Source: Raillietiella orientalis (lineage: Eukaryota). Taken from it: DNA of 64,000 nucleotides. The stretch spans positions 620,001 through 684,000 of the forward strand of contig JAYWIR010000007.1 of NCBI GenBank assembly GCA_036172245.1, in the 5' to 3' direction. The notes beneath the pieces were generated by a model. The model was not told the origin of the DNA and did not search any database. It saw nothing but the letters and a program-made list of their open reading frames with translations. Numbering within the stretch: the stretch's first letter is position 1; every line of letters starts with the position of its first letter. Below are positions 9,085 to 51,354 of the stretch, piece by piece. Both the position numbers and the translations under genes were made by a program.

Positions 9085-9300
9085 GGTCGACTCCCATTTG
9101 TCCCGGCCCTCATTGGAGGGCATCGGGTTTCAACCGCTACCAGTGCCGCACCCGGATGAATGTAGGCCAACCAGCGTCTTCTTGCGGGGTGAACTCGGAA
9201 CCCACGACGCACTTTGTCGATTCCTTCGGAGTATTCGAACCCACAACGCATGGTGCCACGAGCAGAGACCACCGTAACCACATGGCCTTCGACGCGGGCC
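9085..9300 (-). mobile_element. Head-only (3'-truncated) copy of the tRNA-derived SINE, subfamily B
   Basis: The minus strand reads GGCCCGCGTCGAAGGCCATGTGGTTACGGTGG...GGGTTCGAATACTCCGAAGGAATCG...GGGACAAATGGGAGTCGACC. This is colinear with 43221-43463 (A-box-like GTGGTTA, B-box GGTTCGAATAC). Similarity stops at ~9085. Confidence 0.85.
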
Positions 9301-9446
9301 GTGGAGAGATACCCAAACCAGGCCTTTTCGACCACTTTCCTGCAGCATTTTTCCCTCCAAACCGTCCGACAGGCCGTGGGGAGATACCCAAACCAGGCCT
9401 TTTCGACCACTTTCCTGCAGCGTCCTTCCCTCCAAACCGTCCGACA
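9297..9446. repeat. Direct tandem duplication, 2 x 75 bp
   Basis: GGCCGTGG(A/G)GAGATACCCAAACCAGGCCTTTTCGACCACTTTCCTGCAGC...CCCTCCAAACCGTCCGACA occurs at 9297 and again at 9372. Confidence 0.95.
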
Positions 9447-17902: not shown

Positions 17903-20900
17903 ATGGAGGGGAAGGGAGGGGGGCGGACCCCTGCTGGAAGGCTCCTTCGCGAAGAACGGCTGCCGCCGACCGAGCTGCGCGTGAGTGACCGCTCCACCTT
18001 TGCCCTGGAGCAGGAAACTTTTTTCGTCCCTCTGATCGCTCCTGTCGTCGATCCCCGTGAACCCTTCTTCCCTGCCGCTCCAGACCCGGGACTTTTGGAC
18101 CCTCCTTCTGCCCATCTCCTCGGGGAAGGCTCTACTTGGGGTTGCGTCGTGATCTCCTCCACCTCTTTGGTCCGATCGGATACTGGGAAAGGAGGGGTGC
18201 ATGGGGAAGACAGGGTAGGGTATGGGAAGGCACGGGATCGCGCGCATCGGCGGAGGAGCACCCACTTAACCTGACTTCCAGCGTCTTCCAGCACGGGACG
18301 CTGGAAAAGGACGAGTCGGAGGAGAAGGCATCCTAGCGTCGGTTTCCCTGGCTGTCCACGAGGTAAACGCGCCGTCGCCCTTCGTCGCCGTCCGCGCAAG
18401 CGCCGCCGCCGGTAACCACAGAAACGGCTCCGCTTCGACGCGCGCTCCCGTGTGGGCCTTCGTACGCGGATCCCCCATCGTGCTTCCTTCCCTTTTTGAG
18501 TCGAAGAGTGGTGGCAGCTCCCTCTCAGGAAGACGTGCAAGGCAGAAGAACATCCGGAAGCCATCTCCAGCTATCCCCGGGGGGAACAGGGTAGGGTTCT
18601 CCCGACTCAGCGGCAGCGTCTTCCCTTCCGACGCAGGACCTGTCCTGCCCTCCTTTCTGTCCCCCTCCCGGCCGTCCGCTCGCGTTCCCTTGAGGCCGCT
18701 TCGGTCCTGCGCGCTTCCTCCCTGCTGCCGTTTTGCGCCGGCGGCGGTTTGCGCGTGCAATCCTTCAAGGAGGAGGAGGAGTAGCAGCTTCGTCTCAGGG
18801 AGCGGCCAGTAGAGAGGCGAATTTCCTACGGGCTCCCTTTTCTTTTCCCCTTCCCTCGTGCCGGAAGGTGGGGACATTCCGGGAAGTTTCCCGTTCGCCC
18901 TCGGATCCGGGACGATGGCGAGTTGGTGCGAGCCTCCTCCTCTCCTGGGAGATTGAGAGGAGGATGGAGGCGCCCCGATCGGGAACGTGCTTCCCTTCTC
19001 CACCCTCCTTCCTGAACTGATCCTGGAGTTGTTTCGTCCCATCCTCGATCCCCCTGAGTGCCGCCGCGGAAGTTGTGCGGCGAGGCAGGAGGAGGAGGAG
19101 GAGGAAGAGGAGATGAGGCACCCATGCTCCGTCTCAGTTCTATTCCTCTCCAGCCCGCTCTGCCAGGAGGACTGGCGAGTCTTCGACCGCGCCTCACCTC
19201 CTTCTCCCCCATCCCCTTCCTTAGGAACGGAGTCGGCTCTCGCGGGAACTTCGAGCCCGTCCAATGACCGCCACGCCTGGGCGCAAAGCTGCCGCTGGCA
19301 TTTTGCCCTCTTTCCTCCTTTGCACATCGCGGCGGGGTCCTGGGGGAAGAGAGGAGGCAGGGAACGAGGGATACGTTGACACGGGAATTGGCCGAAAAAA
19401 AGCCTACTTAGCTCTGCCTGGGCCGTAGGTCCGGTGTTCGGGGTTCCTCTGCTGCTACGGGGATGGAGAGATGACGCTCTACGTGGAGCTTCTAGGGTGC
19501 AGCTTTCAGACTCTCCCTGTTCCCCCGCGGTTCCCGCTGCTCTTCAACGAGACGTTCAGGGTCACGAAGGTAAGTCTCTGCATCCTTCAGCGGAGAGAGG
19601 GAAAGGAAGGCGAGATCCGACGAGCACGGTATGAGCGTGCCCTGAGGAGAGGAAGGGCGGACTCCTTTTCTTCCTCCCTCTTTCACCTCGTCCCTCCCAA
19701 CCACTCCTTGAGAGGCGAAAGTGCCCCTGAGCCTCCGAGGAGTGAGAGCTTATCTCCCCTCTCCCTGCCCCACAGAGGAGGAGGGAGGAGGATTTCGTCT
19801 CTTCCTCCCCTTTCGTCCTTTTCCTGGCCGTCCCTTAGGGGCCTGGGCGCTCACCGGTGCCCCTCGCAGTCCCTTTGCCCTCCTCCCTCGCTCCTGGCTG
19901 GAAGGGGCTTCGGACCATAGTTTCCCTCTGGTGTCTCCCAGGTGGTGAGGGCGGGCGGCTCCTCCGGCGCCGTAAGCGCGCTGCTCTCCTGCCCTTGCAA
20001 GCTGGAGCTCCGGCACCACCGCCGCAGCGGCAGGACGGTGGTCCTGGCCCGCCACCAGACGACGGGAGCGAGGCTCTTGAAACTCCGCGGGATGAGGGAA
20101 ACCAGGACCGACGACAAGGTCGCGCTGCACCAGATCACCTTCTTCTACCAGGTACGTGAATTGTCGGAAGACCACGGATCACGCCTCTTCCCCCCCTCCC
20201 TCAAGGGTCTCTCCACGCCTTGGGTCTACTACTCAGCCGCCACGAAGTTGCTCAGGGTCAGAGGAAGGCGCAGGACCTTTACAGGAGCGGAGGACTCTCT
20301 TGTGCAACTGCAGGTTGGATCTTCCCCTTCTGATTGTCCGAGGGGGGTGAGGGGTGCGCGCCTCCCTCCGTACCTATCTTCGCCGCTCATCCTTGCACCT
20401 TCCCTCACTCCCCCTCGTTCTTGCGGATTCCCGTGACGCGCCAGCTGGCTCTCCAAGAGCGAGGGTGGCGGTGGCTGCCGCCTCTTTCCTCTCCCTTTCC
20501 TTCTCCAGCGCACTTTGAGCTCCGCTTTCCCCCCTGCCTGTCTCCTCCCGTCGTCCCCACGAGCCACGGGAGCTGCTACGCGACTAACTCCCTTTGCAAG
20601 CGGCGCTCCGGCCCTGGTCGATCTCCCGCCACCTCGATCGTCTTCCTTGGAGACTGGTCCTGCCGTTCTTTCGCCTTGAGACGCAGGGAAAGGGTGGGAT
20701 CCGGGTGGGCTCCCCCGGATGACTCCTTCTCCTTCCAGAAAGCGGAAGCGACGGCGCCCGATTCCGGGAACGACATCTCTCCTGACCAAATTGCCTCCAC
20801 CCTTGGGTCGAGCAGGTCAGTGCGCCCCGCGCCAGGGCGGGTCGGACGACCCCTCCGGGGGGTCGATCCATGGCCCCTTTTCGTCCTCTCCGGAAGGATT

Positions 20901-25455: not shown

Positions 25456-27846
25456 ATGAAAGTTACAAAGACACGTAAGGATAATTCAGACTCGAAGACT
25501 CCGGTCAAAAACAACACTATGAAGAATTTGAAAACGGGTACATCATCTGAATATCAAGTGGACTCTTCTGATGAAGAGGTTTGTGAAAGCAGAGTTTTTT
25601 TTTTTCGAGCTTACCAATTCTATGTGTTAGGATGCCAGGGATCCCGTCGGGAACATTCCCTTGGAGTGGTATAAGGATTACAAGCATGTTGGTTACAATT
25701 TAGATGGAAAAAGGATTCTCAAAGTCAGTAAAGGGGATCGGTTGGATTATTTCTTAAAAAAAATGGAAGATCCTCGTTTCTGGTAAAGTTGATGTTTATT
25801 TACCTGGAAAGGGGGGCATTCAAACTTCAACAGGAGGACTGTTGAAGATAGATTGACGGGACAAGATGTTATTCTTACTGATGAGGATTTGGGCATCATC
25901 AGAAACTTGCAGAAGAACTATGTGCCAGATTTGAGGTACAATCCATATGAGGTATGAATTTAACTTAATTTGAATGTTACTGCGCAAGTATGTGTGGTGT
26001 AGTGCCTTGCTTTTTATGCTTTGTAGCCATGGGTAGATTTTTTTACACATGAAGTCATGCAAATGCCTGTGACTGCACGCCCACCAGTGAAGGCTGAGTT
26101 TGTACCCAGTATTTGGGAGAGACGCAAAATAGGCCGAATGGTGCATTCCATTCAAATGGGACGCATGAAACCTACCCAACCTAAGAAAACTGAGGATCCC
26201 AAGTAAGAAATGATTTCATGGTCAATGGCACTTTCTAAGCAAAGCTAGGTTTTATTTACTTTGGGATGATGATAAACCACTTCGACAGATTCAGGATTAT
26301 CTCCCTGCTCCTAAAATGGCTTTGCCAGGGAATGCTGAATCTTACAACCCTCCTGAAGAATACCTTTTCACACCTAATGAGGTAAATAACTTAATGTACT
26401 CTGCCAGAATCTTTCCTAAATTTGTATAGCTGGATAAGTGGAACTCCTTGAAACAGGAACCTTGGAAACGAAAACTGCCATTTATACCACAGAAATATTC
26501 GAGCCTTTTGCAAGTGCCTTATTATGACAAATTCACCAATGAGCGCTTTCAACGCTGCATGGATCTGTACTTGTGTCCACGTTCTCAGAAGATGAGGGTG
26601 AATACTGTTGTAGTAAAGTCAGCCAAATCAATCAAATACTTTCCAGCTAACTATACAACCTGAAGATCTTGTTCCCCACCTTCCAAAGCCTAGTGAACTG
26701 CAGCCCTTTCCCACATTTGAGGCTTTACAGTACCTTGGTCACACTGATATTGTGCGCACAATCTCAGTGGAGCCACTAGGACAGTTTTTAGCTTCAGGGT
26801 CTGATGATGGCACAGTTAGAATATGGGAACTAAGCACTGCTCGTTGCCTCTCTACTGTACATATAGGAGAGACAATCCACTGTGTGGCCTGGTGCCCTAA
26901 TAAAGCCATCAGTTTGGTGGCCATAGCATCTGGTGAAATGTGTTTGCTAATTAATCCTAGTGCAGGAGATACAGCAGTGATAAATTCCACTGATATGGTG
27001 CTTCAGCAGTTATGGAACAGTAAAGCTGCATCTAAATTGTCTGGTGAGATGGGCATGGTGGAATGGCAGCAACCTTCCCCTGCTAACTGGAAACATGGGT
27101 GGCGTGTCATTTTGAAACATTCCAAACCTGTTCGCAAAGTGTCCTGGCATGTTAAAGGCGACTATCTGACTACAGTTATGCCTGATGGGCAAAGTCGAGC
27201 AGTTGCAATTCATCAACTTTCAAAACAATGCTCTCAAACTCCATTTAGCCACTGCAAGGGTCAAATTCAGCTTGGAACATTTCATCCTAGTCGTCCTCTT
27301 TTCTTTGTTGCTGTAAGTATTAATTCTTGAGGAGATTTTACTGTTTTATAGACTCAGCGTTTTGTGAAAGTCTATAACTTGGTGAAGCAACAACTGGTCA
27401 AAAAGCTTAATGTGGGCACTAACTGGATCTCCAGTTTAGCAGTCCATCCAGGAGGAGACAATGTGATTGTAGGTACATATGACAAAAAACTGATATGGTT
27501 TGATATGGACTTGGCTACTCGTCCATATCAAACTCTGCGACATCACAAGCAAGCTATACGACAAGTTGCCTTTCATCGGCACTATCCTTTATTTGCTTCA
27601 GCTTCCGATGATGGTACTGTGATTGTGGGTCATGGGATGGTATACAGGTAATCCAAATAGCTAACCAGAATGCTTCTCACATGTAAACTTAGTGACTTGC
27701 TCCAGAATCCACTCATTGTACCAGTGAAAGTTTTACGCACACATCAAACTAGGAATGGTTTGGGTGTATTTGACTGTTGTTTCCATCCCTCACAGCCATG
27801 GTTGCTATCATGTGGAGCTGATAACTCCATTCGTCTGTACACTTGA
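25456..27846 (+). CDS. BOP1: Ribosome biogenesis protein BOP1/Erb1 (exons 25456-25578, 25631-25782, 25834-25951, 26027-26202, 26249-26381, 26430-26597, 26647-27312, 27352-27647, 27693-27846)
   Basis: The spliced translation gives [79 protein letters not shown]40 repeats ([22 protein letters not shown]) and the C-terminal [14 protein letters not shown]...[21 protein letters not shown]. All introns are GT-AG and in phase. Confidence 0.97.
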
Positions 27847-27857
27847 GTCTCCAAGTT

Positions 27858-29388
27858 TTACTTGAGCATCAGCTTCAGTGATATGTCCTCATGCTTTCCA
27901 TTGTATAGATGGTAGCAACGACGAGTGTATGCAAACAGTAAATCAGTGGCCAGGAAAATGATCCCAACATTAAATGCCAGCGTAACTCCAAAGTAAAAGT
28001 TAGCATTGGCTGATCCACTGTATAACCAGAGGTGCCAGAAAGCAGGTGCTACAACACTGCTGGCAAGTAACAGGCAGCCAACAAGCAATGTTTGCCTTAA
28101 AACTGGTTTGCAATAAAAAATATTTGCAATAAAGAAATGTTATACATACATCTGACCAGGTGACGCCATGCTGGCAACAGACTTAATGCTAGGCCTACAT
28201 AAGCTATGCAGGGGTATGGTTGGAAGATGGCAATTAAAAATAAAAGTATATGTGACACAAAGAAAGGGTCTTGAGAGAAACGCACAGTTAGAGGAATGAT
28301 ATACAAAAAGGTATTCAGCTGAAAAACACAGATGAAGAAAAACCTGAAGTGCTGAAACACTTCTGCAAAGAAGTACCAGAATAACCCAATATTGGGTTTC
28401 AAATCAGGAACCAAAAACCTGTAAGCCACCAATACATCGAACAAACATCTAGGGACAATTACTTACATAAAACCATAAGTGGCATCTAGGAAATCCCAAT
28501 TGCCTTCTAATTTATATGAAATTAGAAACAAAGCTGCAAGGCAGAGCACAAAAACAGTACAGTATCCAAACATGTGCAACCACAGTGTTTTCCAATCATC
28601 TTTTTTAGTACTGGTTCTCTGTGCTAACTTGAGAGCTATAGGTATGAGAAGTAGCCCTGGATATGCTGTCTTGTATGTTGCCAATGCCAGGATGGCACAT
28701 GCTATATTACCCTTCCCTACACACAATCATAGACAAATACGTGTAAAAATATTTCTTACCCGAAACTACATTCCAAAATAGAAGAGAAATCAGGAAATTA
28801 TCGAAAACTGCTGTAGTCTTTCCCAGAGATGACATAATGATATAAGGATTCAGAAAATATGCCACCAACACATTTTGCCTCGCTATCTCAGCATCGCTTT
28901 TGTTGATCTTAAGAACTTCTGATTCTTTGGCATAATAACGGGATTCTTCCTCTTGCTCCTCAAACTGAACCCAAATGGTTTATACGAAAAAAAAACCGTG
29001 TCAGCCTGTTTCCCTACCATGAAGTTGACGTGATTACGAGCAATACATGATAAAAGATATCCTGTTAAAATATCAACCAGCATAAACAGATATGGAACTA
29101 TGAAATCTCTTCTTAATATGAATTTGTAAAAATACAAAAAAATGGGTGGCTCATGAAACAAGTCACCGGAATACGGTGATATTCCTTCCGATGATAAATG
29201 TGTGCCCTCGATTGCTGGGTATTAAATCAATACAGTCATTGCCTGGGAAACACGTGCCTACCTCTTGTCCATGAGTTTATTGGAGTCGAAATTTCAACTC
29301 GATTCTCGAAAATGGATTGCAATCCTAACTGTATGATCGCAAAGCGAAATGAAATCGCAATTGAGATTAACAAAAAAATTTTACCCAT
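27858..29388 (-). CDS. PIGU: GPI transamidase subunit PIG-U/GAB1 (exons ~29388-29262, 29214-29018, 28964-28760, 28716-28467, 28418-28150, 28102-27858)
   Basis: Motifs RVEISTPINSWTR, EGISPYSGDLFHEPP, DLKPNIGLFWYFFAEVFQHF and WHLWLYSGSANANFYF, with multiple hydrophobic segments and GT-AG introns of ~43-53 nt. An alternative ATG lies at 29397. Confidence 0.95.
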
Positions 29389-31514: not shown

Positions 31515-31527
31515 ATCACTAGTGTGT
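31515..31527. repeat. Left copy of the 13-bp target-site duplication ATCACTAGTGTGT
   Basis: Identical to 32569-32581. The pair brackets the whole U6+SINE unit. Confidence 0.9.
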
Positions 31528-31534
31528 GTGTGTG

Positions 31535-32508
31535 TTTTTAAGAGTTTTCTTTTTTTTGGTTCGCTAAGTACCTCAGAGCCGGTCGCGTGCCTCGCGGCGC
31601 GCGTGGCTCTTTTTAAACATTAACACACTGTTTTGTGTCCACGCCTGTCCGCGGCAACCCGCAGGGGGGGGCGTGTAATTCTTCAGTGTAATATTCTTCA
31701 GGATAGGGGGCACCCCGGGATGGGGTCCGCCCTATTGAATCCAGGAAGGACTCGGAGTCCGTTCCTCTCACGCGAGGGATCCCCCCCGCACGGGGGGGAG
31801 CGCACCTCCCACCCTGGTTGTCTCCGAAGGAGAACCCCGAAGGGAATCTCTCCTTCCTCATTCTCTCCGGAGGGACACCCCCCGCAATGGGGGGTGGTCC
31901 TCTCCATTTCAACTTCTCCGAAGGGAACCCGGAAAGGATCCGCTTGTAGGAATTTCTTCTCCGGAGGGAACTCGCAAGGGAACCGCTCCTTTATTCACTC
32001 CTCTGAAGACAACCCCCACAGGGGTGCTTCCGAAACTCAGAAGGGGCGCTGCAGCTTCCCTCAGGGAATCGCTCTCGCTTGCTTCTTTCCTTTGTACACA
32101 CTCTGTGAAGAGGCGACGACTCGGAGGGACCCCCCGCAACGGGGAGGGTCCGCTCCTTTGAACAACTAGAGAGGTGCCCGTGAGGGCTCCTGCTCCATCT
32201 TGTAACCGGAGGCGGTCCCCCGGTGACGGGGGGTCCACTCTCCTTTGCACACAGGAGGGGGAGCTCCCCACTCCTTTTATTCCTGGGAGGACCCGAAGGT
32301 CGACTCCCATTGTTCCGGCCTTCATCGGGAGGCCGCCGGCTTTATCCACCGCCGGGGCCAAGCCCGAATGTCTCGGCCAACCAGCGCCGTTGCAGGAGAA
32401 ACTCGGAACCCAAACGACGCAATGGCGTCAGAGTTTCTGCCGGAGTATTCGAACCCGCGACGCATGGTGCCAGGCGGAAGCCTTAACCACAAAGCCTCCG
32501 ACGAGGGC
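31535..32508 (-). mobile_element. Full-length tRNA-headed SINE-like element, subfamily A (copy 1), with hairpin-array body and A-rich tail
   Basis: The minus strand has A-box-like GTGGTTAAGG and B-box GGGTTCGAATAC, no TTTT run over ~950 nt, a 3' stem-loop AGAGCC...GCC-GCGA-GGC...GGCTCT, then AAAAAAAAGAAAACTCTTAAAAA. A near-identical second copy lies at 40946-41929. Confidence 0.9.
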
Positions 32509-32512
32509 TTAT

Positions 32513-32571
32513 AAAAATGTGGAACGCTTCACGATTTTGCGTGTCATCCTTGCGCAGGGGCCATGCTAATC
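32513..32571 (-). ncRNA. U6: 5'-truncated U6 snRNA retrocopy (3' 59 nt), fused to the SINE 5' end
   Basis: The minus strand reads GATTAGCATGGCCCCTGCGCAAGGATGACACGCAAAATCGTGAAGCGTTCCACATTTTT. This is the U6 internal stem-loop and 3' end including the oligo-U. The 5' stem-loop and ACAGAGA box are absent, so it is not a functional gene. Confidence 0.97.
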
Positions 32572-32581
32572 ACTAGTGTGT
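32569..32581. repeat. Right copy of the 13-bp target-site duplication ATCACTAGTGTGT
   Basis: Identical to 31515-31527. Its first 3 nt (ATC) are shared with the U6 truncation point (microhomology). Confidence 0.9.
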
Positions 32582-35679: not shown

Positions 35680-38600
35680 ATTTATTCTCATTCGCACTAC
35701 AGTTCATTCATTCTATCCACTTCTCACTGTCACTTATGTTCTCTTTGAAGTGCACTAACTAGGAGTCACAAACACTGGGGTTCTTCATTAGGGTGGGCTG
35801 GGCGTTAATGGAGCTTGGGCATTATCTTCGATCCTTTTCAGGATGTACCAATAAGTCCAGGACGGCACTCTGCCACAGTTCCTGCCGATCTCTTTCTGAA
35901 TAACCCCTTTCAGGATTTCCAGGGGAGATGCGGCCGTTCTGGCGTTCCTCATCTTCCACCACCTTATGAGGATGGCGAGGATGAAAAGGGCAACGGTCAT
36001 ACGGTCATCCTAACCATTGGGTTATAACAGGGGACGTTTCCACTTCTTTGGAACATTATGGCTAGGACTTCCGTTGGCGAGTAATTCTGCAGCCCTATGA
36101 CCCTTTTCAGAGTCTGCCAGTCTTGATGGATTGTGGGGCAGGTCAAGACGTGAAGTTTGGTGCCCACATCCCCGCATGTTTTGCGGTCCTCATCTTGTCT
36201 TGCTCCTGTAAAATACTTCATTCTAGACCCGCTCAGAATTCTTCCATGATAAAAAATCAAGAGGTTTTCCTGGGTGTCCGACGGTAGGTCACTCCTCCAG
36301 ATCGTGGTTCCGATCGCCAGCAGGTTGACGGTGTCAGCCCCATGGAGACGGGCAGCTTCCTGGAGGGCACTGGTGTTCTTGTCTTATGATGCAGCATAGA
36401 GTTTTCTCGGTTGCCCTGGACTACGCGTAGTTGTTGTGGTTCTTCCGCACTTCGCGGGTCATGTGGGTGAACCTTCCCGTCATCATGTCGATGTATCTCA
36501 GTATCCGGGAGTGGTGGTGGAATCCACTCCGCTTCCACTGTTATATTCTCTGTAGAGTGACTCTATGCTGTTGGTAGATACAGCTCCAAGTGTCCCTAGG
36601 GACCGGGAGCATCCAGATCACCAAGGTGGTTTCTTCCTCCCAGAATTCCTTGTTTCAAGGCACGATCTTGATTTGGTGCTTTTGCACCAGTGCCTGCTTC
36701 CTCTTCCAGGTCGGGTCGATGGATAACCATTTCCCAGCTCGGCCTAGCAACGCAGTCATCAGGCCTCTCGAGTTCAGTAACAACGAGTAGGCCCTATGGG
36801 CGGCGTACGGTCAGTCATTCTAATCGGTCGTGGTGTCCAGGAGCTGTCGCGTGTCCATGGTGCCGACGGCGTGTCCTAGCGACTGCATCCCGATGCCTCC
36901 TTCTTCCTTGGGACAGCACAGGGGTTTCAGTCGGATCCTTATATGTACTCTAAAGAGTTTTCCGTTGCAGCTTTTCCACTTCTCGTCGGGTGTTCTTGTC
37001 CATTCTGCAGAAGGCCGCTCCAAAGAGAATCTTTCAAAGTAGGACACCATTTCAAGGATCGGCCTTCCTCTTCATGTTGAAGTCCACCCGAGTGTACTTC
37101 GCTGCTTCTTCAGCTGTTTTCCCCAGTATTTCCGTCCACAGCAGCTTCGACTCAGAGTCTTCGCCGATGTGGACTCCTAGGTATTTCGGCACGTCCCCCG
37201 TTTGGAATCCCTTCCCCGTGAGTGCGGAGGGATCCAGGATTCCAACGGTCAATAGTTGGCTTTTCTGGGCATTGTTGCCCTAATCCTTCTTCCATGTGCT
37301 CCGCCACATCTAGAAATGCTCGCTGATCCCTTTCCCCCTCGAGGAAGAAGAGTAGGTCGTCGGCACCAGATGGGTGAGACGCTGGTCGTCGATGTTAATC
37401 CCTCGCAGTTTTCCGCTTCGTTCAATGAACGAGGGAAGCGCCTCCATATAAATGACAAACAGCATCGGACTGAGAGCATCTCCCTGTCGGACTCCTCGCT
37501 TCATCCGTATGACTGCTGTATCCTCTCCGTTGATCTTGATCTTGAAGTGCTGTCGCTGGAGTACCATGCTCACGAAGTTGCTGAAGTATTCCGAGAGACC
37601 CAGTCTTCCTAGTATCTTCAGCAGCATCCCGTGATCGACTGTGTCGAAAGCCTTCTCCTCCATGTCTGTGAAGCCCAGTACCAAGTCGTCGCCGACGAGG
37701 CGGCAAAGTCCTATGGTAGCCTGGGCACACTTGACATTGTCTTGGCACCGCACACGTCTGGACCGGAGAGATCAGCTTCGGCATGGCCGCGCCTAAGCGG
37801 TTGGCCCAGATGTTCGCCAACCACTTGGCATCAGAGTTGAGGATTGAGTTTGGCCTCCATTGGGTGACCTTGGTTAGATCGTCTCCTTTCGGCAGCAATC
37901 TCATCCTGCACTCGTAGAAGGATGCGGGTAATCTTCCTTCTTCACGGATGTGGAGCGTCAGCTGGTGGAACAGGCGCAGGTAGGCATGCAGGTACCGCTG
38001 GTATTGCGTGACGGGCACGTTATCAGGGCTGCTGCCACGTCCTTGCGGAGTTCCAGGAAAGCAGCTTTCACTTCTACGGAGACGTCTTTTTCAAGCTTCC
38101 GTTTTTGGTAGCCAGTTATCCTTCTTTCCATGAACCGTAGGAACATTTCTTTTTTTGCCGGGCACGCTTGTCGCCGTCGGAAGTATTTCTTGTATTGCCG
38201 TTAGAATGCTTCCACGATTTCCTCCGACGTGTGCCGGCTGTGGCCGTCGTACTCGATGTAGAAGATGTCCGTCTCCAGATTCCTCTTCTCTAGCACGTTG
38301 ACTCCCCTTTGACGTTTCGGAAGACGTACCGACTCTCGTACTGATCCCAGTACTCTGAGAGGGAGCGATCTTGGATGTTCTGCTCACGGTACGCTTCCTG
38401 CCTCAGTCTCTTGTCCCATACAGCATGTTGCAGAACAGATGGACTCGGTGTTTCAAGCTATCCCAGTCGGCAACTCTGCGGATGGTGGTGGTCTGCAGAA
38501 TCGCCTCGATGACTTCTTGATGACAGGAAGCGTCTTGAATTAGGCGGGCATGCAAATGAGTGCCGCCCTGTTGTCCTTCTTCCGCCGAGGATTTTCGGTC

Positions 38601-40216: not shown

Positions 40217-42161
40217 ACAATGGATGATCTTCCCGAAAAAAATTTGCAGCATATCTTTTCCCATCTCCCACACCGTGAAATATGCAAGTTAGCACGGGCT
40301 TGCCTCAAGTAGCGTACTGTAGCTTACGATCCTCACTTATGGAAAGTTGTACGCTCGAGGCCAGGTCACTCTGGACTGCATGTATCGTCCACAGAATGCC
40401 TCTCCAGCATCCTTGGGTAAGAAAGATGCCTGATAATTTTTGCTCATTTGTGTGTAAGTTGAACGCACATAGAATCCTGTTGATTCCTATGTGTGCTGGA
40501 TTTGGTTTGGCTGTGAAAGATGACACAGTTTTATATCTAGCACCGTTTCATGATGCTAACGACCTCGTGTGTTTTCTTCCTGATGATGAAACGTAAATCT
40601 TCGGTTCCGTGGGGAGCGAAGCCTGGACATGTGCAAATAGCACAGAATGAACTAAAATGCTTTTTCTCACTCATAATGTAGATGTATAAATGTCATTCTT
40701 ACTGCTTGTATAAGGTTCTTTCGAATTCTGTATGCTTTGCACATCTATCCTCGTCGATATGAAACGCAAAAATCACATGTGGTTCCATGAATGTGTTTCA
40801 GCATCCGATTTGGTTCATGCTTACACCGTATTGAACTACCAACTGACCTGACTGCTCACACAGTGCTGCATGAGTTAGCCACCAAGTGACGATAGTAATC
40901 CTTGGGTTCTTCTTTTTCTTCTGTCTTCGCTGTTTTCCTTCCAGCTTTTTTTTTTTTGAGAGTTTTTTTTTTTTTTTTTGGTTCGCTAAGTACCTCAGAG
41001 CCGGTCGCGTGCCTCGCGGGGCGCGTGGCTCTTTTTAAACATTAACACACTGTTTTGTGTCCACGCCTGTCCGCGGCAACCCGCAGGGGGGGGCGTGTAA
41101 TTCTTCAGTGTAATATTCTTCAGGATAGGGGGCACCTCGGGATGGGGTCCGCCCTATTGAATCCAGGAAGGACTCGGAGTCCGTTCCTCTCACGCGAGGG
41201 ATCCCCCCCGCACGGGGGGGAGCGCACCTCCCACCCTGGTTGTCTCCGAAGGAGAACCCCGAAGGGAATCTCTCCTTCCTCATTCTCTCCGGAGGGACAC
41301 CCCCCGCAATGGGGGGTGGTCCTCTCCATTTCAACTTCTCCGAAGGGAACCCGGAAAGGATCCGCTTGTAGGAATTTCTTCTCCGGAGGGAACTCGCAAG
41401 GGAACCGCTCCTTTATTCACTCCTCTGAAGACAACCCCCACAGGGGTGCTTCCGAAACTCAGAAGGGGCGCTGCAGCTTCCCTCAGGGAATCGCTCTCGC
41501 TTGCTTCTTTCCTTTGTACACACTCTGTGAAGAGGCGACGACTCGGAGGGACCCCCCGCAACGGGGAGGGTCCGCTCCTTTGAACAACTAGAGAGGTGCC
41601 CGTGAGGGCTCCTGCTCCATCTTGAAACCGGAGGCGTCCCCCGATGACGGGGGTCCACTCTCCTTTGCACACAGGAGGGGGAACTCCCCACTCCTTTTAT
41701 TCCTGGGAGGACCCGAAGGTCGACTCCCATTATTCCGGCCTTCATCGGGAGGCCGCCGGCTTTATCCACCGCCGGGGCCACGCCCGAATGACTCGGCCAA
41801 CCAGCGCCGTTGCAGGAGAAACTCGGAACCCAAACGACGCAATGGCGTCAAGTTATCTGCCGAAGTATTCGGATCCGCGACGCATGGTACCACACGTGGA
41901 AGCCTTAACCACAAAGCCTCCGATGCGGGATCCGAGTGATCTGTTACTCGATTTTTCCAATGCTATGCAGTTGCATGACTTCGATGAATTCCAGGTAGTC
42001 AGTGATGCACTGCAATGCAAATGCTGTGTGTGTTGTAATTCAGGCATTCTCTACAAAACTACATGCGCTGTGTATTTGTCTTCCCGGAGTTCTTTTCGTG
42101 GAAGGTTTCATGGGGAAAATTTACAATTCTCTCCGTGGACTAGAAGTCCTTCACTTGATTG
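40217..42161 (+). pseudogene. F-box/LRR-repeat protein pseudogene fragment (exons 40217-40416, 40802-40888 / 41930-41994 split by a SINE, 42044-42161)
   Basis: F-box MDDLPEKNLQHIFSHLPHREICKLARACLK*RTVAYDPHLWK has TAG at 40310 in place of the conserved Trp. It continues IRFGSCLHRIELPTDLTAHTVLHELATK // SDLLLDFSNAMQLHDFDEFQ|AFSTKLHALCICLPGVLFVEGFMGKIYNSLRGLEVLHLI. This matches my recollection of an invertebrate FBXL family (Drosophila CG32085-like), which needs BLAST confirmation. Confidence 0.85.
40946..41929 (-). mobile_element. tRNA-headed SINE-like element, subfamily A (copy 2)
   Basis: Colinear with 31535-32508 (offset ~9422 bp) and has an A-rich tail. Its B-box is altered to GGATCCGAATAC, and no U6 is attached. 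Confidence 0.9.
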
Positions 42162-43220: not shown

Positions 43221-44045
43221 GGCCCCCGCATCGGAGGTCGTGTGGTTACGGTGGTCTCCGCGCGTGGCACCATGCGTCGTGGGTTCGAATACTCCGAAGG
43301 AATCGGCACAGTGCGTCGTGGGTTCGAATACTCCGAAGGAATCGGCACAGTGCGTCGTGGGTTCCGAGTTCACCCCACAAGATGACGCTGAATCCGGGTG
43401 CGGCACTGGTAGCGGTTGAAACCGGCTGCCCCCGATGAGGGCCGGGACAAATGGGAATCGACCTCCGGGTCCTTCCAGGAGTTACGGAGTGGGAGCTCCC
43501 TTTCGGTTGTGAACGAGCGGACCCCTCATTAGGAGAGGAACCCCTCCGCGTCGTACTGATGGAGAAGGTGTGTCGCCACTACCTCTCCAGAGAGCCGATC
43601 CCTTCGGGGAAACTGCGCCCTTCTGAATTTCGGAAGCGTTTCTTCTGGGTTCTCTTCAGAGGAGTAAATACAGGAGGGGATCCCTTGCGGGGGATCCCTC
43701 CGGAGAAGAAATTCCAGGATCCAATCCTTTCCGGGTTCTCTTCAGAGATGAAGGAATGGAGCGGACCCCCCGAGGGGTCCTCCAGAGAGAATAAGGAAGG
43801 AGGATTCCCTTCTGGATTCCCCTTCGGAGACAACCAAGGTGGAGGTGATCTCCATTTCCGGGAATCCCGCCCCAGGCATGAGAGGAACGGACTCCGAGTC
43901 CTTCCTGGATTTACAGGGAGGACCCCTCCCGAGGTACCTACCCCCTATCTTGGAGAATGAGACGCAGCCTCGAGTTGCGTGGAACCGTGTCGAAGAACTG
44001 GTAAGAAGCATGATCTTGTGTGAAGGAAATATTTGAATACATACA
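43221..44045 (+). mobile_element. tRNA-headed SINE-like element, subfamily B (shared head and hairpin body, different 3' tail)
   Basis: GGCCCCCGCATCGGAGG...GTGGTTACGG...GGGTTCGAATACTCCG. The body is colinear with subfamily A to ~43948, including the identical block GAGAGGAACGGACTCCGAGTCCTTCCTGGATT. No TTTT occurs until ~44132. The 3' boundary is approximate. Confidence 0.82.
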
Positions 44046-47400: not shown

Positions 47401-49360
47401 GTCGGCACAATTTCCTAAGATGACCTGCGAGTCGGCGAACCCTCTTAACTTTTTTCTTTTTTTGCGTCACAAGAAGCTACGTTCCTTGTTTGATGAAGTT
47501 TTATTTTTTATTAAGATAAATGGCCCGGAGAAACCGGGTGAATAATCAAGTGAGCTTCTGAGATGAAATTCCCTATTTGACTTTGCAGACGGCTTCACTA
47601 ATGTATATCTTCTAGAAACGAGTAAGGACTTACTGCGATCCGAAAGCAGCTAATGGGACCGTCAACTGACGCGGGAGGACATCAAATCATAGCTTCATCT
47701 CTTCGGCTTGTGTCTCATCCCTAATGACATTCATGAGTGTAATGAGTCTGAGCAAGAGAAGCGATATCAAGCCACGCCATTTTCAACGGATGAATTGATG
47801 ACCTTCAGGGTACCCTTCTGACCTATATCAATTATGAACGTGGAAAAACTCGCACACAATCATCAGATGGAGTCGAGTTTTCATTTAAATATGAACATCG
47901 AATTCGAACTTGGAAGAAACCTTGAATATCTTAGAGATCACGAATGTAGGAAACATTATCTTGAACCAATTGTGATTCAGGAAAGAAGAGAAGAGTGTGT
48001 AGTAATAGGAGAATGATCAATTGATCTTCATCATCTCACCCAATCGCAAGGAGCATCGGACAGAAACGTTTTCCTTCTCAGGTGAAGTGATCGATGATGA
48101 AACCGTAGCTGTACCTTATCTTATTTACAAACTCATAAAGAAAGCACAATTTATTGAGGACATTCTCTGATTCGACGAGTTTCCTTGAATTTCTTGAGGA
48201 AAGTTCTCAACAGCTAGATTTGTTGGAGCAATCCTGAAACCTAACCAGTTGCTCTGAGACTAAAGTGCCCCATCTAACAACCTAGTTAAAAAGAGTCGGT
48301 CCTCAGACGTTCTTCTTCAGAGACACCTCTCTAATCTTCTATTAGAAGTTTCTATTCGGACTTTGGTAAGCACTTAAGCCTGATTATGATTCTGAAAGGT
48401 TTGTTACGGAAGCATTAGTACAAACGGAATCGAACGTACCTTCCCTTTTCCCATCGTACTCAATACATTCCATGCTTGAAAATTTCAGAGGACCTAGTGA
48501 TCAAATGTGAGTTGCTTTCAGATAAGGTCCAGTGTGATTGAAACCCATACCAGAGATTATCGGGGTGTGCTACATGGAATTGGCACGGTGGAATCGCCAT
48601 CCTTTTTGTTCGAAACTGCTAGCAGATATCAAAGAAGAATCCTTGACGGCTGGAAATTTGCTCTTGGGCTGATCCTCGGCAACGACGAGGTGTTAATACA
48701 ATGATCCACATCCACAACTTACCACTGCTGAAGTGCAAGTATGGCAGCGAGGGGGAAAGCTGAAGTTTCCCTTCAAATCTGTGTTCGCGTCATGGAGAGG
48801 TTTGTGACCAGTTTTTGACCTGGCTTAGTGAATACTCGAAAAATTAATCAGAACAGAATAGAGAGCTAATGCCATGGGACGGGAACGAACACGCGAAATG
48901 CATTTTCTTGAAAATGAAGATTAATTGGTGGAGCAGGGTTGCACGAATAGTCCTGAAAACCCAAAATGATTCCATCACGAATAACTAATAAAGGAAAATG
49001 TCTGCTGGTGTGCTGTGATTAAGATGGGTTCCTCAAGAATTAAGCACGATATCCGAATTTTCTTCTACAGAACATTTTAACGGCATGAAATTCCATGTTG
49101 TGATATTATCATAAAAGATGAATTCGAAAATCTTTCCAGTAAATGATCCGTACATACCCAGATTATGGCAATGTAACGTATCAGAGAAATGGAAGGAACC
49201 CATTTATCAGTAAAATTAAATTATTTTTCATACATTCTGACTACACTTTCAGTCAGTAAGCTGAGTCCACTGCATTTCGTTGCGCATATGACCTACGGTC
49301 AATGTTGTTTGATCGATGCGTTCGCTCCCCACCAGCTCATTGCTCATCACATAACGCACA

Positions 49361-51354
49361 ATGATTTTCACAAGCGGTGATATGATAGAACGCAAAAAGG
49401 ATTGTGTAGAAAGTGAATCGGAAGAAAGAAACAATATTCACGATCACTGCCTTAACTGCTTCACCGAAAAAACATGTGCTTTAAAGTATGCCTCTGGAAG
49501 CAGCCTTTCCTGTGATTTTGTCTCTTGTATTCTGAAGTGTGGAGCAGTGTATCATAAATGTAAAAACTTAGAGCACAGAAAGCTCTGTCCCAATGAATTA
49601 GTGACATGCATTAACTATAATTATGGTTGTCCTGCCAAAATGCAACGACGAAATCGTGGAATTCACCTTAAATATTGCCCTGCCAGCGTTATTGTTTGTT
49701 ACATGGCATGGAATAGAAAGAAGATGAATGATGAAAAAAATTGGATTATTCTAGAAAGTGGCCAGAAAATAGATTGTGTTTTAGGTTGTGGAATTAGTTT
49801 GAGGGAATTAAATAGCCAAAAATTAATTCAAATCTAAGAAAAACTTTAAATCTTTATGTTTAATGGTACAACATACATATATATTTTTTGTATTTAGATG
49901 TCGCCCTTGCCTTAAGAGATGAAAAGACATTTCTTGAAAAAGAAAGTAGCTGTTACTCTCCCCCAGAATCTGAAGACAATCATGATTGCTGGAATAAAGA
50001 AATTGCACTACAGGACTCTAGTATTAATCCAGCATCAGATGCATTCGGCTTTTCTGAAACGGAACGAAATGCGGCCACAAATACATATGATGGTGAATTC
50101 AGTATTTTGTTAATTATTACAATTAGTATCCAATTCAACATATTCAGCAGAATGAAACACAATGTCAGAATTTTCTTCAAACTTCATTATGAGATTGTGT
50201 TATGCATTGATTATAAGAAAATGTTATTTTGTGTGATTAAAAAAGATTATTCTAAAGAGTTAAAATTAAATATATTTTAACTTTACTTTTTGTTATGTTT
50301 AGGTTCTCAGGAAGATAATCTAAACAAACAGAGAAGGAAATCAAATGATATCCATGATTTAAGTTTTGGAAATGAAAAAATGGGTTCTTTATGGTGTGAT
50401 CAATCTCAGTTTTGCCCAGCTTGCTCAAATCGATCACCAATGAAGTGCTTAAATTCTCTAAATGCAAAATCGTATATGTGCTATCATTTGCAGTACAGTC
50501 TGCAAATGCAGCATCAGAATGCATGTCCATTGCATATGGATACTTTCCACTGTGGAATGAGTATGAAGCGCAGTGAATATTCACATCACTGCAAAAATAT
50601 TCATGCAGAAATTCAAGCTGGCCTGGATGGATGGCTCATAGACAGGTGCCCTTTGGCATGCTATGGCTGCCCATTTTATACAGTTCGATTTTCTTGTGGA
50701 GAGTCTAGTGATGAAGCTGTGTACTTCTGCAAACAGAAAATGTCATTCCAAATAAAATCTAGTTTGAGAGACCCTTTCTTGCATTTTGTTCCTGGAAATA
50801 CAAAGGAGCAGAATCAACCACAATTTACTTTGATTGACTTGCCTGTAGAGTTGCTACAAAAAATATTTCTTTTGCTTGATTCATCAAGGTAATTTGGAGT
50901 AAATTTGGATGTAGGGGAGTCAATTAAGATTCATATTATCACATATAAATTTTAAATAAAAGATGGTGGTAATAAAAAAAATCTCATGATATATGTCAAA
51001 AAGTGATAAATCTTGAAAAGTATAAAACTTAAGCACAAATCTAAAAGAGAATAAGATACTTCAATCAATAGCTATTTTATGTGATTAATCTTCGATGTTT
51101 TGATAGTTCTATTTAGAATGATAGTTTCATATTATTTGGAATTTTCGTCGGAAATGCATTGAAATTTCATCGATACAGTTAGATTGTAATATTCATGTAA
51201 TTTTTTCAGTTTATGGAATGTGTCAGTGACTTCCAAGTTCTTGAGATCCGTTTGCCAAAGTGTTCTGGATAGAAAGGGCATGGTCTTTGTGAGGTGGAAT
51301 CAAGTTCACAAGACTGATTCAGAAATGAGAGTCTCTTGGAGAGATGACAAAAAG
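49361..51354 (+). CDS. F-box only protein 30/40-like (exons 49361-49784, 49898-50092, 50303-50888, 51210-51354; terminal exon not located)
   Basis: TRAF-type zinc finger HDHCLNC...CGAVYHKCKNLEHRKLCPNELVTCINYNYGCP...HLKYCPASVIVCYMAWNR, then LDVALALRD, RSEYSHHCKNIHAEIQAGLDGWLIDRCPLACYGCPF and F-box LIDLPVELLQKIFLLLDSSSLWNVSVTSKFLRSVC...GMV. Splice phases are consistent. Confidence 0.9.

Follow-up and report, generated by a model that had tools for sequence, protein, structure and literature searches.

SINEs are short retroposons that RNA polymerase III (Pol III) transcribes, and SINEBase described 175 families of them in 2012, ranging from 75 to 662 nt without the tail and defined by a head that shares 60% or more identity with a tRNA, 5S or 7SL RNA over 60 nt (PMC3531059). 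The length limit for a SINE is given in that paper as less than 1 kb, and elsewhere in it as less than 700 bp (PMC3531059). Among the elements described there, CHRS is a quasi-oligomer SINE, in which a motif of ~20 nt is repeated more than 10 times (PMC3531059). Stem-loops with compensatory changes have been documented as common to SINEs and their partner LINEs of the CR1/L2 type (PMC4824008). SINEs are also found in chimeras with a 5'-truncated U6 snRNA, which have been attributed to template switching by the LINE enzyme in platypus, lizard, and opossum (PMC4476161), and a route through RNA ligation by RtcB has been proposed for U6 chimeras as well (PMC6789731).

The retroposon described here lies in a window of 64 kb (the whole stretch of DNA analysed), is under 1 kb and over 700 bp in length, and is longer than each of the 175 SINEBase families as described in 2012. 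Its copy A1 runs on the minus strand from 32508 to 31528, comprising 981 nt with the tail and ~950 nt without it, and is composed of a head, a hairpin array (31697–32309), a unique 3' domain, and an A-rich tail (the last two together 31528–31696). The ends of this copy have been fixed by alignment: its minus-strand sequence opens with GCCC, and all four copies in the window begin at the identical base. On the 5' side, A1 is bounded by a U6 fragment plus 4 nt, and on the 3' side by a target duplication. The 3' domain bears two more GC-rich hairpins, followed by a tail of the form AACC(A)n-ACTCTY-(A)n, and the A-rich tail is common to both copies of subfamily A.

The four copies occupy dispersed loci. 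The second member of subfamily A (A2, 40967–41929, minus strand) is 97.6% identical to A1, from which 14 substitutions and 6 gap columns separate it over 940 aligned columns. A diverged subfamily is represented by B1 (43225 to ~43990, plus strand, with an approximate 3' end), which shares 83% identity with A in an alignment of 506 columns (85 substitutions), lacks two to three of the units, and holds one extra repetition of the box-B segment. The remaining copy, B2 (9085–9299, minus strand), is truncated and retains only the head and the first unit. Outside these four copies, nothing in the window resembles the element. Related sequence is present in two public runs, referred to here as X1 and X2. 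In X1, one contig of 955 nt, at a depth of 15.4, spans the element alone (31550–32493) and is 90–95% alike, while 73 contig pieces in X2 match the element at 80–100% likeness, some of them skipping 79, 110, 77, or 84 nt of it. Judged by these sequences, the element is a multi-copy, diversified family. Metagenome scans, one with a 22-nt motif of the body and one with a 25-nt motif of the head, returned no loci, and neither did a viral scan for the element. Four element motifs had no occurrence in the literature text searched, and a search for tRNA-derived SINEs with tandem hairpins in arthropods gave nothing pertinent among the matches listed. The family may already be catalogued in Dfam, Repbase, or SINEBase.

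A coding function has been ruled out for the element. Its longest frames reach 172–173 residues in the sense and 181 residues in the antisense direction; none of them gives a Pfam match, and the reading frame is not conserved between subfamilies A and B. For these two reasons the element is considered non-coding.

The 5' boundary of A1 is occupied by a 5'-truncated copy of U6 snRNA (32513–32572, minus strand; Rfam RF00026, 60.6 bits, E = 8.5e-13), which corresponds to model positions about 47–105 plus the T run, that is, to the 3' 60 nt of the molecule. Four nucleotides, ATAA (32512–32509), link this fragment to the first base of the element. A 13-nt target-site duplication, ACACACTAGTGAT, is found on the minus strand just before the U6 part (32569–32581) and again just after the A tail (31515–31527); this 13-mer has exactly two matches in the 64-kb window, where none would be expected. 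Since one duplication encloses the 3' part of U6, ATAA, and the element, the truncated U6 and A1 entered as a single cDNA, and a chimera organised in this way is a signature of LINE-mediated insertion. In the Group IV U6 retrocopies the 3' end of a 5'-truncated U6 likewise abuts the 5' end of a retroposon, and a single pair of duplications flanks the two, although the chimeras of that group are described from mammals, platypus, and lizard (PMC4476161), whereas A1 lies in an arthropod-like genome. The AT-rich parts of the window contain host genes coding for BOP1, PIG-U, and a TRAF-type zinc finger protein; the best named relatives of BOP1 are arthropod proteins (~50–53% identity), and the genome looks arthropod-like for this reason, though no close relative of it is on record. 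The chimera shows that the capture of U6 by a LINE enzyme also operates in such a genome.

The dependence of the element on a LINE is suggested by the lack of a protein domain, the A-rich tail, the 13-nt duplication, and the U6 chimera, and on these hallmarks the element would agree with SINEs in being non-autonomous and reverse-transcribed by a partner LINE. The only reverse transcriptase (RT) fragment considered as that partner (37313–37771) was rejected, because neither the fragment, which has no similarity to the element, nor the DNA just 3' of it, which ends in GAATGAATGAA, shares anything with the element.

The head carries, between 32491 and 32445 on the minus strand, a box A-like motif (TGTGGTTAAGG, 32491–32481) and a box B-like motif (GGTTCGAATAC, 32455–32445), which are conserved, together with their ~36-nt spacing, in four of four copies at the motif level. 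SINEBase treats boxes A and B as an indication of a SINE head and not as proof (PMC3531059). ARAGORN reported no tRNA gene in the element, and Rfam gave no match to tRNA, 5S, or 7SL at E values up to 1 for A1 and up to 5 for B1 and B2; neither program recognises in the head any of the RNAs to which, by the definition of SINEBase, a SINE head is at least 60% identical over at least 60 nt. The position of the U6 junction argues for a full-length template RNA with a defined 5' end, which would lie at most 4 nt from the first base because the junction sits there. An internal Pol III promoter would produce such a 5' end, and transcription by Pol III is plausible. The lack of TTTT on the sense strand, to which the sequence-only reading had drawn attention, does hold for A1, A2, and B1, but between 32% and 38% of mononucleotide shuffles lack it as well, so that it is not remarkable, and avoidance of TTTT was rejected as evidence for Pol III. 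On the same strand, A1 has 10 AAAA start positions, of which one falls in the hairpin array and the others in the 3' domain and tail. With these features, the SINE-like nature proposed from the letters alone has held up, in the form of a dispersed, non-coding, A-tailed retroposon of the LINE-dependent type with a Pol III-style head motif.

The array of A1 comprises ~11 canonical units and four to five other small hairpins, all of them described here on the minus strand. The canonical unit reads AAA-GGAG-N-GGACC...GGUCC-CUCC-GGAGA, and several sense-strand stems are capped by UUCG or UCCG tetraloops. Energies were obtained from a span-limited minimum free energy (MFE) fold and from each unit folded alone, and are given in kcal/mol. 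From the head inwards, the units are u1 (32285–32308, −12.5), with a C(UUCG)G loop; u2 (32253–32275, −14.7); u3 (32208–32243, −23.2) and u4 (32166–32197, −16.8), both absent from the earlier list; and u5 (32123–32156, −23.8). These are followed by u7 (31963–31989), which is decayed in A1 (−6.6), reaches −13.5 in the X1 version, and is perfect in B1; u8 (31869–31905, −28.0); and u9 (31826–31856, −15.4), with a UUCG loop. The u10 region (31767–31814) can form two alternative hairpins in A1, amounting to −29.4 together, and the hairpin at 31774–31811 (−22.7) is again an addition to the earlier list. The array ends with u11 (31744–31765, −9.0), whose outer stem is GGAA/UUCC and which is identical in B1, and with u12 (31704–31736, −19.1). 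In B1, hairpins are found on the plus strand at 43673–43701 (−19.8) and 43758–43783 (−15.6). The eight hairpins of A1 and the two of B1 that the sequence-only reading had listed were all recovered, with their coordinates, arms, bulges, and loops, by the span-limited and the single-unit folds, and the A-rich linkers that it described are real, since most units follow an AAAGGAG or a near match to it.

When the body (31696–32312) was folded with a pair span of at most 50 nt, its energy was −270.0 kcal/mol, compared with −209.7 ± 10.8 for 200 dinucleotide shuffles (z = −5.6, 0/200). Its hairpins at or below −12 kcal/mol numbered 12, while the shuffles had 7.2 on average and never more than 11. 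The sequence thus folds better than shuffled controls, as had been anticipated. The opposite strand of the A1 body folds equally well (z = −5.4), and the folds of the whole region agree in showing no strand difference; in B1 the folding is weaker (z = −2.8 sense, −2.4 antisense). Because the antisense strand scores as well as the sense strand, folding energy cannot identify the strand. G·U pairs number 7 versus 2 between the strands in the A1 units and 5 versus 3 in B1. An assignment of the strand from folding was rejected in view of the lack of an energy difference and of the reversal of that difference between A1 and B1. In the 64-kb window, canonical units that reach −21 kcal/mol are confined to the element copies, and the other GGAG...CUCC hairpins are weaker than this value, with the exception of one of −24.4 kcal/mol at 18959–19001.

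The units are related to one another. Internal direct repeats are 61–84% identical at spacings of 43–96 nt, and 18 units taken from A1 and B1, once aligned, yield a consensus made of an A-rich linker, GGAG, one bulged base, GGACC...TCC-CTCC, and GGAGA, with a mean column identity of 46%. Tandem Repeats Finder reported no arrays at a score of 30, since the units are too diverged. The number of units varies, as B1 lacks two to three of them and X2 contigs skip 77–110 nt. Judged by this alignment, the ~11 canonical units are homologous, and the proposal that homologous, 5'-bulged hairpins are arrayed along the body finds support in the direct repeats, in the 18-unit alignment, and in the covariation of the basal pairs described below. 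The body thus has the make-up of a quasi-oligomer, with a degenerate motif in about ten or more tandem repeats and variants in their number.

In its quasi-oligomeric body, the element resembles the SINEs of the CHRS type (PMC3531059). However, the ~20-nt motif of CHRS is not described as a hairpin in the SINEBase account, whereas the units of the element are palindromes of ~31–50 nt with matched arms specific to each unit. The stem-loops of CR1/L2 SINEs are small as well, and there they are kept by compensatory change for the retroposition of the SINE itself (PMC4824008); as described, they are one or two 3'-terminal hairpins that the LINE has as well, while the element holds an array of 12 units in its body and has an A-rich 3' end. 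The 3' stem-loop typical of the partners of stringent LINEs is therefore not found here, with the units located in the body and no LINE counterpart in the 64-kb window.

Among longer retroposons, the SVA composites are non-autonomous and LINE-dependent, as this element appears to be, and they hold a central GC-rich array of 35–50 nt units. This VNTR also varies in copy number, like the array described here. SVA, however, is a Pol II transcript, is not known to have a tRNA-like head, and holds a VNTR that is not known to form discrete hairpins.

Whether the hairpins are maintained was addressed at the level of units and of lineages. Joining the 5' half of one unit to the 3' half of another (arm swap) weakened the summed energy of 11 units from a native −191.8 to −137.2 ± 10.5 kcal/mol (0/20000 permutations), and because of this loss the hairpins amount to more than a common GGAG/CUCC consensus. 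Across the 18-unit alignment, the eight basal pairs are formed in 82.8% of the cells, compared with 77.2% after shuffling (0/500), and seven of the eight have changed on both sides (shuffled mean 3.8, 6/500). Double-changed cells number 13 against 5.1 in the shuffles (0/500), with every slid control lower, although the independent events are fewer than 13 because orthologous units of A and B are both counted. Covariation, which had been suggested as a check on the array, is therefore observed among units at the basal pairs; between A and B it is at chance, and RNAalifold predicted no pairs on a MAFFT alignment of the units that contained register shifts and a misaligned row (Au2).

At the level of lineages, the 85 substitutions between A and B were placed at random on A with the base classes kept, and the resulting pseudo-B sequences folded at −173.3 ± 9.1 kcal/mol, compared with −198.3 for B1 (2/300; 1/300 when the CpG context was kept). 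Similarly, the changes of the X1 contig, introduced into A1 as a partial reconstruction (all 28 substitutions and 19 of the 23 gap letters), left the fold at −389.8 kcal/mol, close to the −390.9 of A1, while random placement gave −367.1 ± 9.4 (1/300); in this version u7 and u10 fold better and u9 and u11 worse than in A1. The private changes of A2, on the contrary, act as random ones (−373.3 versus −375.1 ± 6.0, 114/200), and in the control run in the reverse direction it is A1 that holds the better-folding state (2/200). In this small set, made up of the four window copies and one partly reconstructed contig, propagating lineages seem to preserve the folding and individual dead copies to decay, in agreement with the structural conservation across lineages that had been proposed.

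The earlier claim that subfamily B keeps the same folds with a different sequence is overstated in its details, although the hairpin potential is kept. Twenty-five of 142 comparable pairs are broken between A and B, and column-wise compensation is at chance, with two double-changed kept pairs against 1.6 expected. The excess consists mainly of unchanged pairs (107 versus 98.5 expected, 16/1000), and changed pairs end as A·C (11) at least as often as G·U (8). Some units are intact in one lineage only, like u7, decayed in A1 and perfect in B1, and several units of B1 are weak. With both strands folding equally and unit stems that are ~95% Watson–Crick without a consistent strand bias, the constraint cannot be assigned to the RNA strand in particular.

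Taken with the features described above, these results point, with somewhat better than even confidence, to a SINE-type, non-autonomous, LINE-dependent retroposon with a quasi-oligomeric hairpin body that is kept in the propagating lineage. Its RNA would start at, or a few bases before, the head bearing boxes A and B, and a LINE enzyme would reverse-transcribe and insert it at the A-rich tail. The central 600 nt is a quasi-oligomer in which one GC-rich palindromic unit recurs in about a dozen degenerate versions, spaced about 31–50 nt, each expected to fold into a hairpin with a conserved outer GGAG/CUCC stem, a 5' bulge of 1–3 nt, and an inner stem of GGAC(C)n/(G)nGUCC. The array probably arose by internal tandem duplication, and its number of units still varies. 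The hairpins most likely serve the propagation of the element itself, since they are kept in copying lineages and decayed in dead copies; they could do so, for example, by compacting or stabilising an unusually long RNA or, alternatively, by offering the retrotransposition machinery many binding sites at once. A further elaboration, which is rather doubtful, regards the element as a Pol III-type RNA of ~0.95 kb, the longest SINE RNA known, whose dozen selected hairpins would form a multivalent protein platform recruiting many copies of one protein, either the RNA-binding protein of the partner LINE or a host factor.

Selection on the folding is precisely what would be missing if the array were a neutral by-product, a reading that is on balance unlikely yet is the main rival. 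According to it, a palindromic unit would have been amplified inside the element by slippage or unequal recombination, as in quasi-oligomeric SINEs, so that the hairpins would simply be young, and its arms would have been kept perfect at the DNA level by template switching between imperfect arms during replication or reverse transcription (quasi-palindrome correction). Template switching, according to one report, both generates hairpins and preserves them, and it can yield compensatory-looking changes in one event (PMC8794818). Because template switching would act on DNA or cDNA, it would account for the missing strand asymmetry of stems that are almost purely Watson–Crick; the chance level of column-wise covariation between A and B, the varying number of units, and the decay of units in single lineages (u7 in A1, several in B1) are in line with it as well. 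However, each unit has its own matched arms despite a mean column identity of 46%, and the differences between lineages spare the folding while the mutations of the dead copy A2 do not, a decay that fits this explanation poorly because dead copies ought to be subject to DNA-level correction as well. A different role has been considered for the palindromes, namely that the units are a multimerised stem-loop recognised by the RT of a stringent partner LINE, with the array as a multivalent recruitment site. The stem-loops with compensatory changes documented for SINEs and CR1/L2 LINEs (PMC4824008) offer a precedent, and the U6 chimera and the target duplication suggest that the element does depend on a LINE. 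Nevertheless, the hairpins lie in the body and not at the 3' end, the A-rich 3' tail suggests a relaxed, poly(A)-using partner, and the rest of the window holds neither a sequence resembling the element nor a canonical unit reaching −21 kcal/mol (the other GGAG...CUCC hairpin of −24.4 at 18959–19001 apart); with the single RT fragment at 37313–37771 also dissimilar, and GAATGAATGAA at the end of its 3' DNA, this reading is highly improbable.

The identity of the promoter is the subject of another alternative, under which the element would be an SVA-type composite retroposon transcribed by Pol II, or part of a longer element, with a likeness to boxes A and B due to chance. ARAGORN and Rfam detected no tRNA, 5S, or 7SL homology, the length goes beyond that of the SINEs known to SINEBase in 2012, and the two boxes are treated there as an indication and not as proof (PMC3531059), all of which would suit such an origin. 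Nonetheless, it is considered improbable, given that all copies start at the same base, that an RNA 5' end, marked by the U6 junction, lies 4 nt upstream of it, and that the box-like motifs and their ~36-nt spacing are kept in all four copies; the lack of TTTT in the sense direction of three copies also counts against it, albeit weakly. Finally, the earlier suggestions of a captured cellular structured RNA, or of an array acting as a protein-binding scaffold or decoy for the cell, would have the repeated, maintained module itself as their only support. Across the window only U6 reaches the Rfam threshold, the other, low-scoring matches on the copies having E values of at least 0.75, and thus no copy has a credible match to an Rfam family; individual copies decay, and A1 is indistinguishable from the other copies of a mobile family. 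Nothing was found in support of a scaffold or decoy role, so that a function for the host, less likely than a role in the element's own propagation, is to be regarded as very remote.

For the host genome, the element represents an ordinary repeat family. Its interest lies in the biology of retroposons, as it is ~1.5 times as long as the longest family described in SINEBase. If the array is selected, it would be a rare case in which the body of a SINE, rather than its tRNA head or its LINE-like 3' end, is under structural constraint, and it would bear on the length limits of Pol III retroposon RNAs and on their access to LINE proteins. Were the multivalent platform to prove true, a non-autonomous retroposon would be seen to compete for the retrotransposition machinery by a novel means.

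At its 5' end, SINE copy A1 (31528-32508, minus strand) is joined through 4 nt to a 5'-truncated copy of the U6 snRNA, and a single 13-nt target-site duplication encloses both sequences together. The U6 copy and the upstream duplication span 32513-32581, while the downstream copy of the duplication lies at 31515-31527, all on the minus strand. The U6-A1 fusion is thus a chimera produced either by LINE template switching or by ligation.

Between the two A copies, in a block of ~52-54% GC, there is a reverse-transcriptase fragment at 37313-37771 on the minus strand (Pfam RVT_1, E 1.6e-08). The DNA ~1.6 kb 3' of this fragment terminates in GAATGAATGAA (35720-35745), an end resembling the tail of CR1/L2-type LINEs. 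No similarity was found between the SINE and either the fragment or the DNA 3' of it.

The head of the element, too, is prone to internal duplication, as shown by its box-B-like repeats and by one contig of the public sequencing run X2, which skips 84 nt at the repeat region. In B1, a copy of the diverged subfamily B, the box-B-like segment GCGTCGTGGGTTCGAATACTCCG... is present twice, together with a third, diverged copy (43262-43360, plus strand), whereas the other heads hold it once, together with one diverged copy (9200-9260 in B2 and 32400-32460 in A1, both minus strand). As a separate observation, two tandem 75-nt units, 95% identical (9297-9446), adjoin the truncated copy B2 (9085-9299) immediately on its 5' side.

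The first 23 kb of the window (1-23000) form a block of 54-66% GC, except for a single 1-kb bin at 45%, and both strands of it carry numerous open frames of 150-425 aa; no Pfam match was obtained for the 28 frames tested. Unlike this block, the DNA bearing the host genes BOP1 (26617-27327, plus), PIG-U (28100-29221, minus) and a TRAF-type zinc finger (49355-49834, plus) has 31-43% GC. A protein-collection search with the BOP1 exon found no close relative of the host, the best named relatives being arthropod proteins (ostracods, insects) with only ~50-53% identity. Judged by these relatives, the genome in which the U6-A1 chimera resides appears to be arthropod-like.
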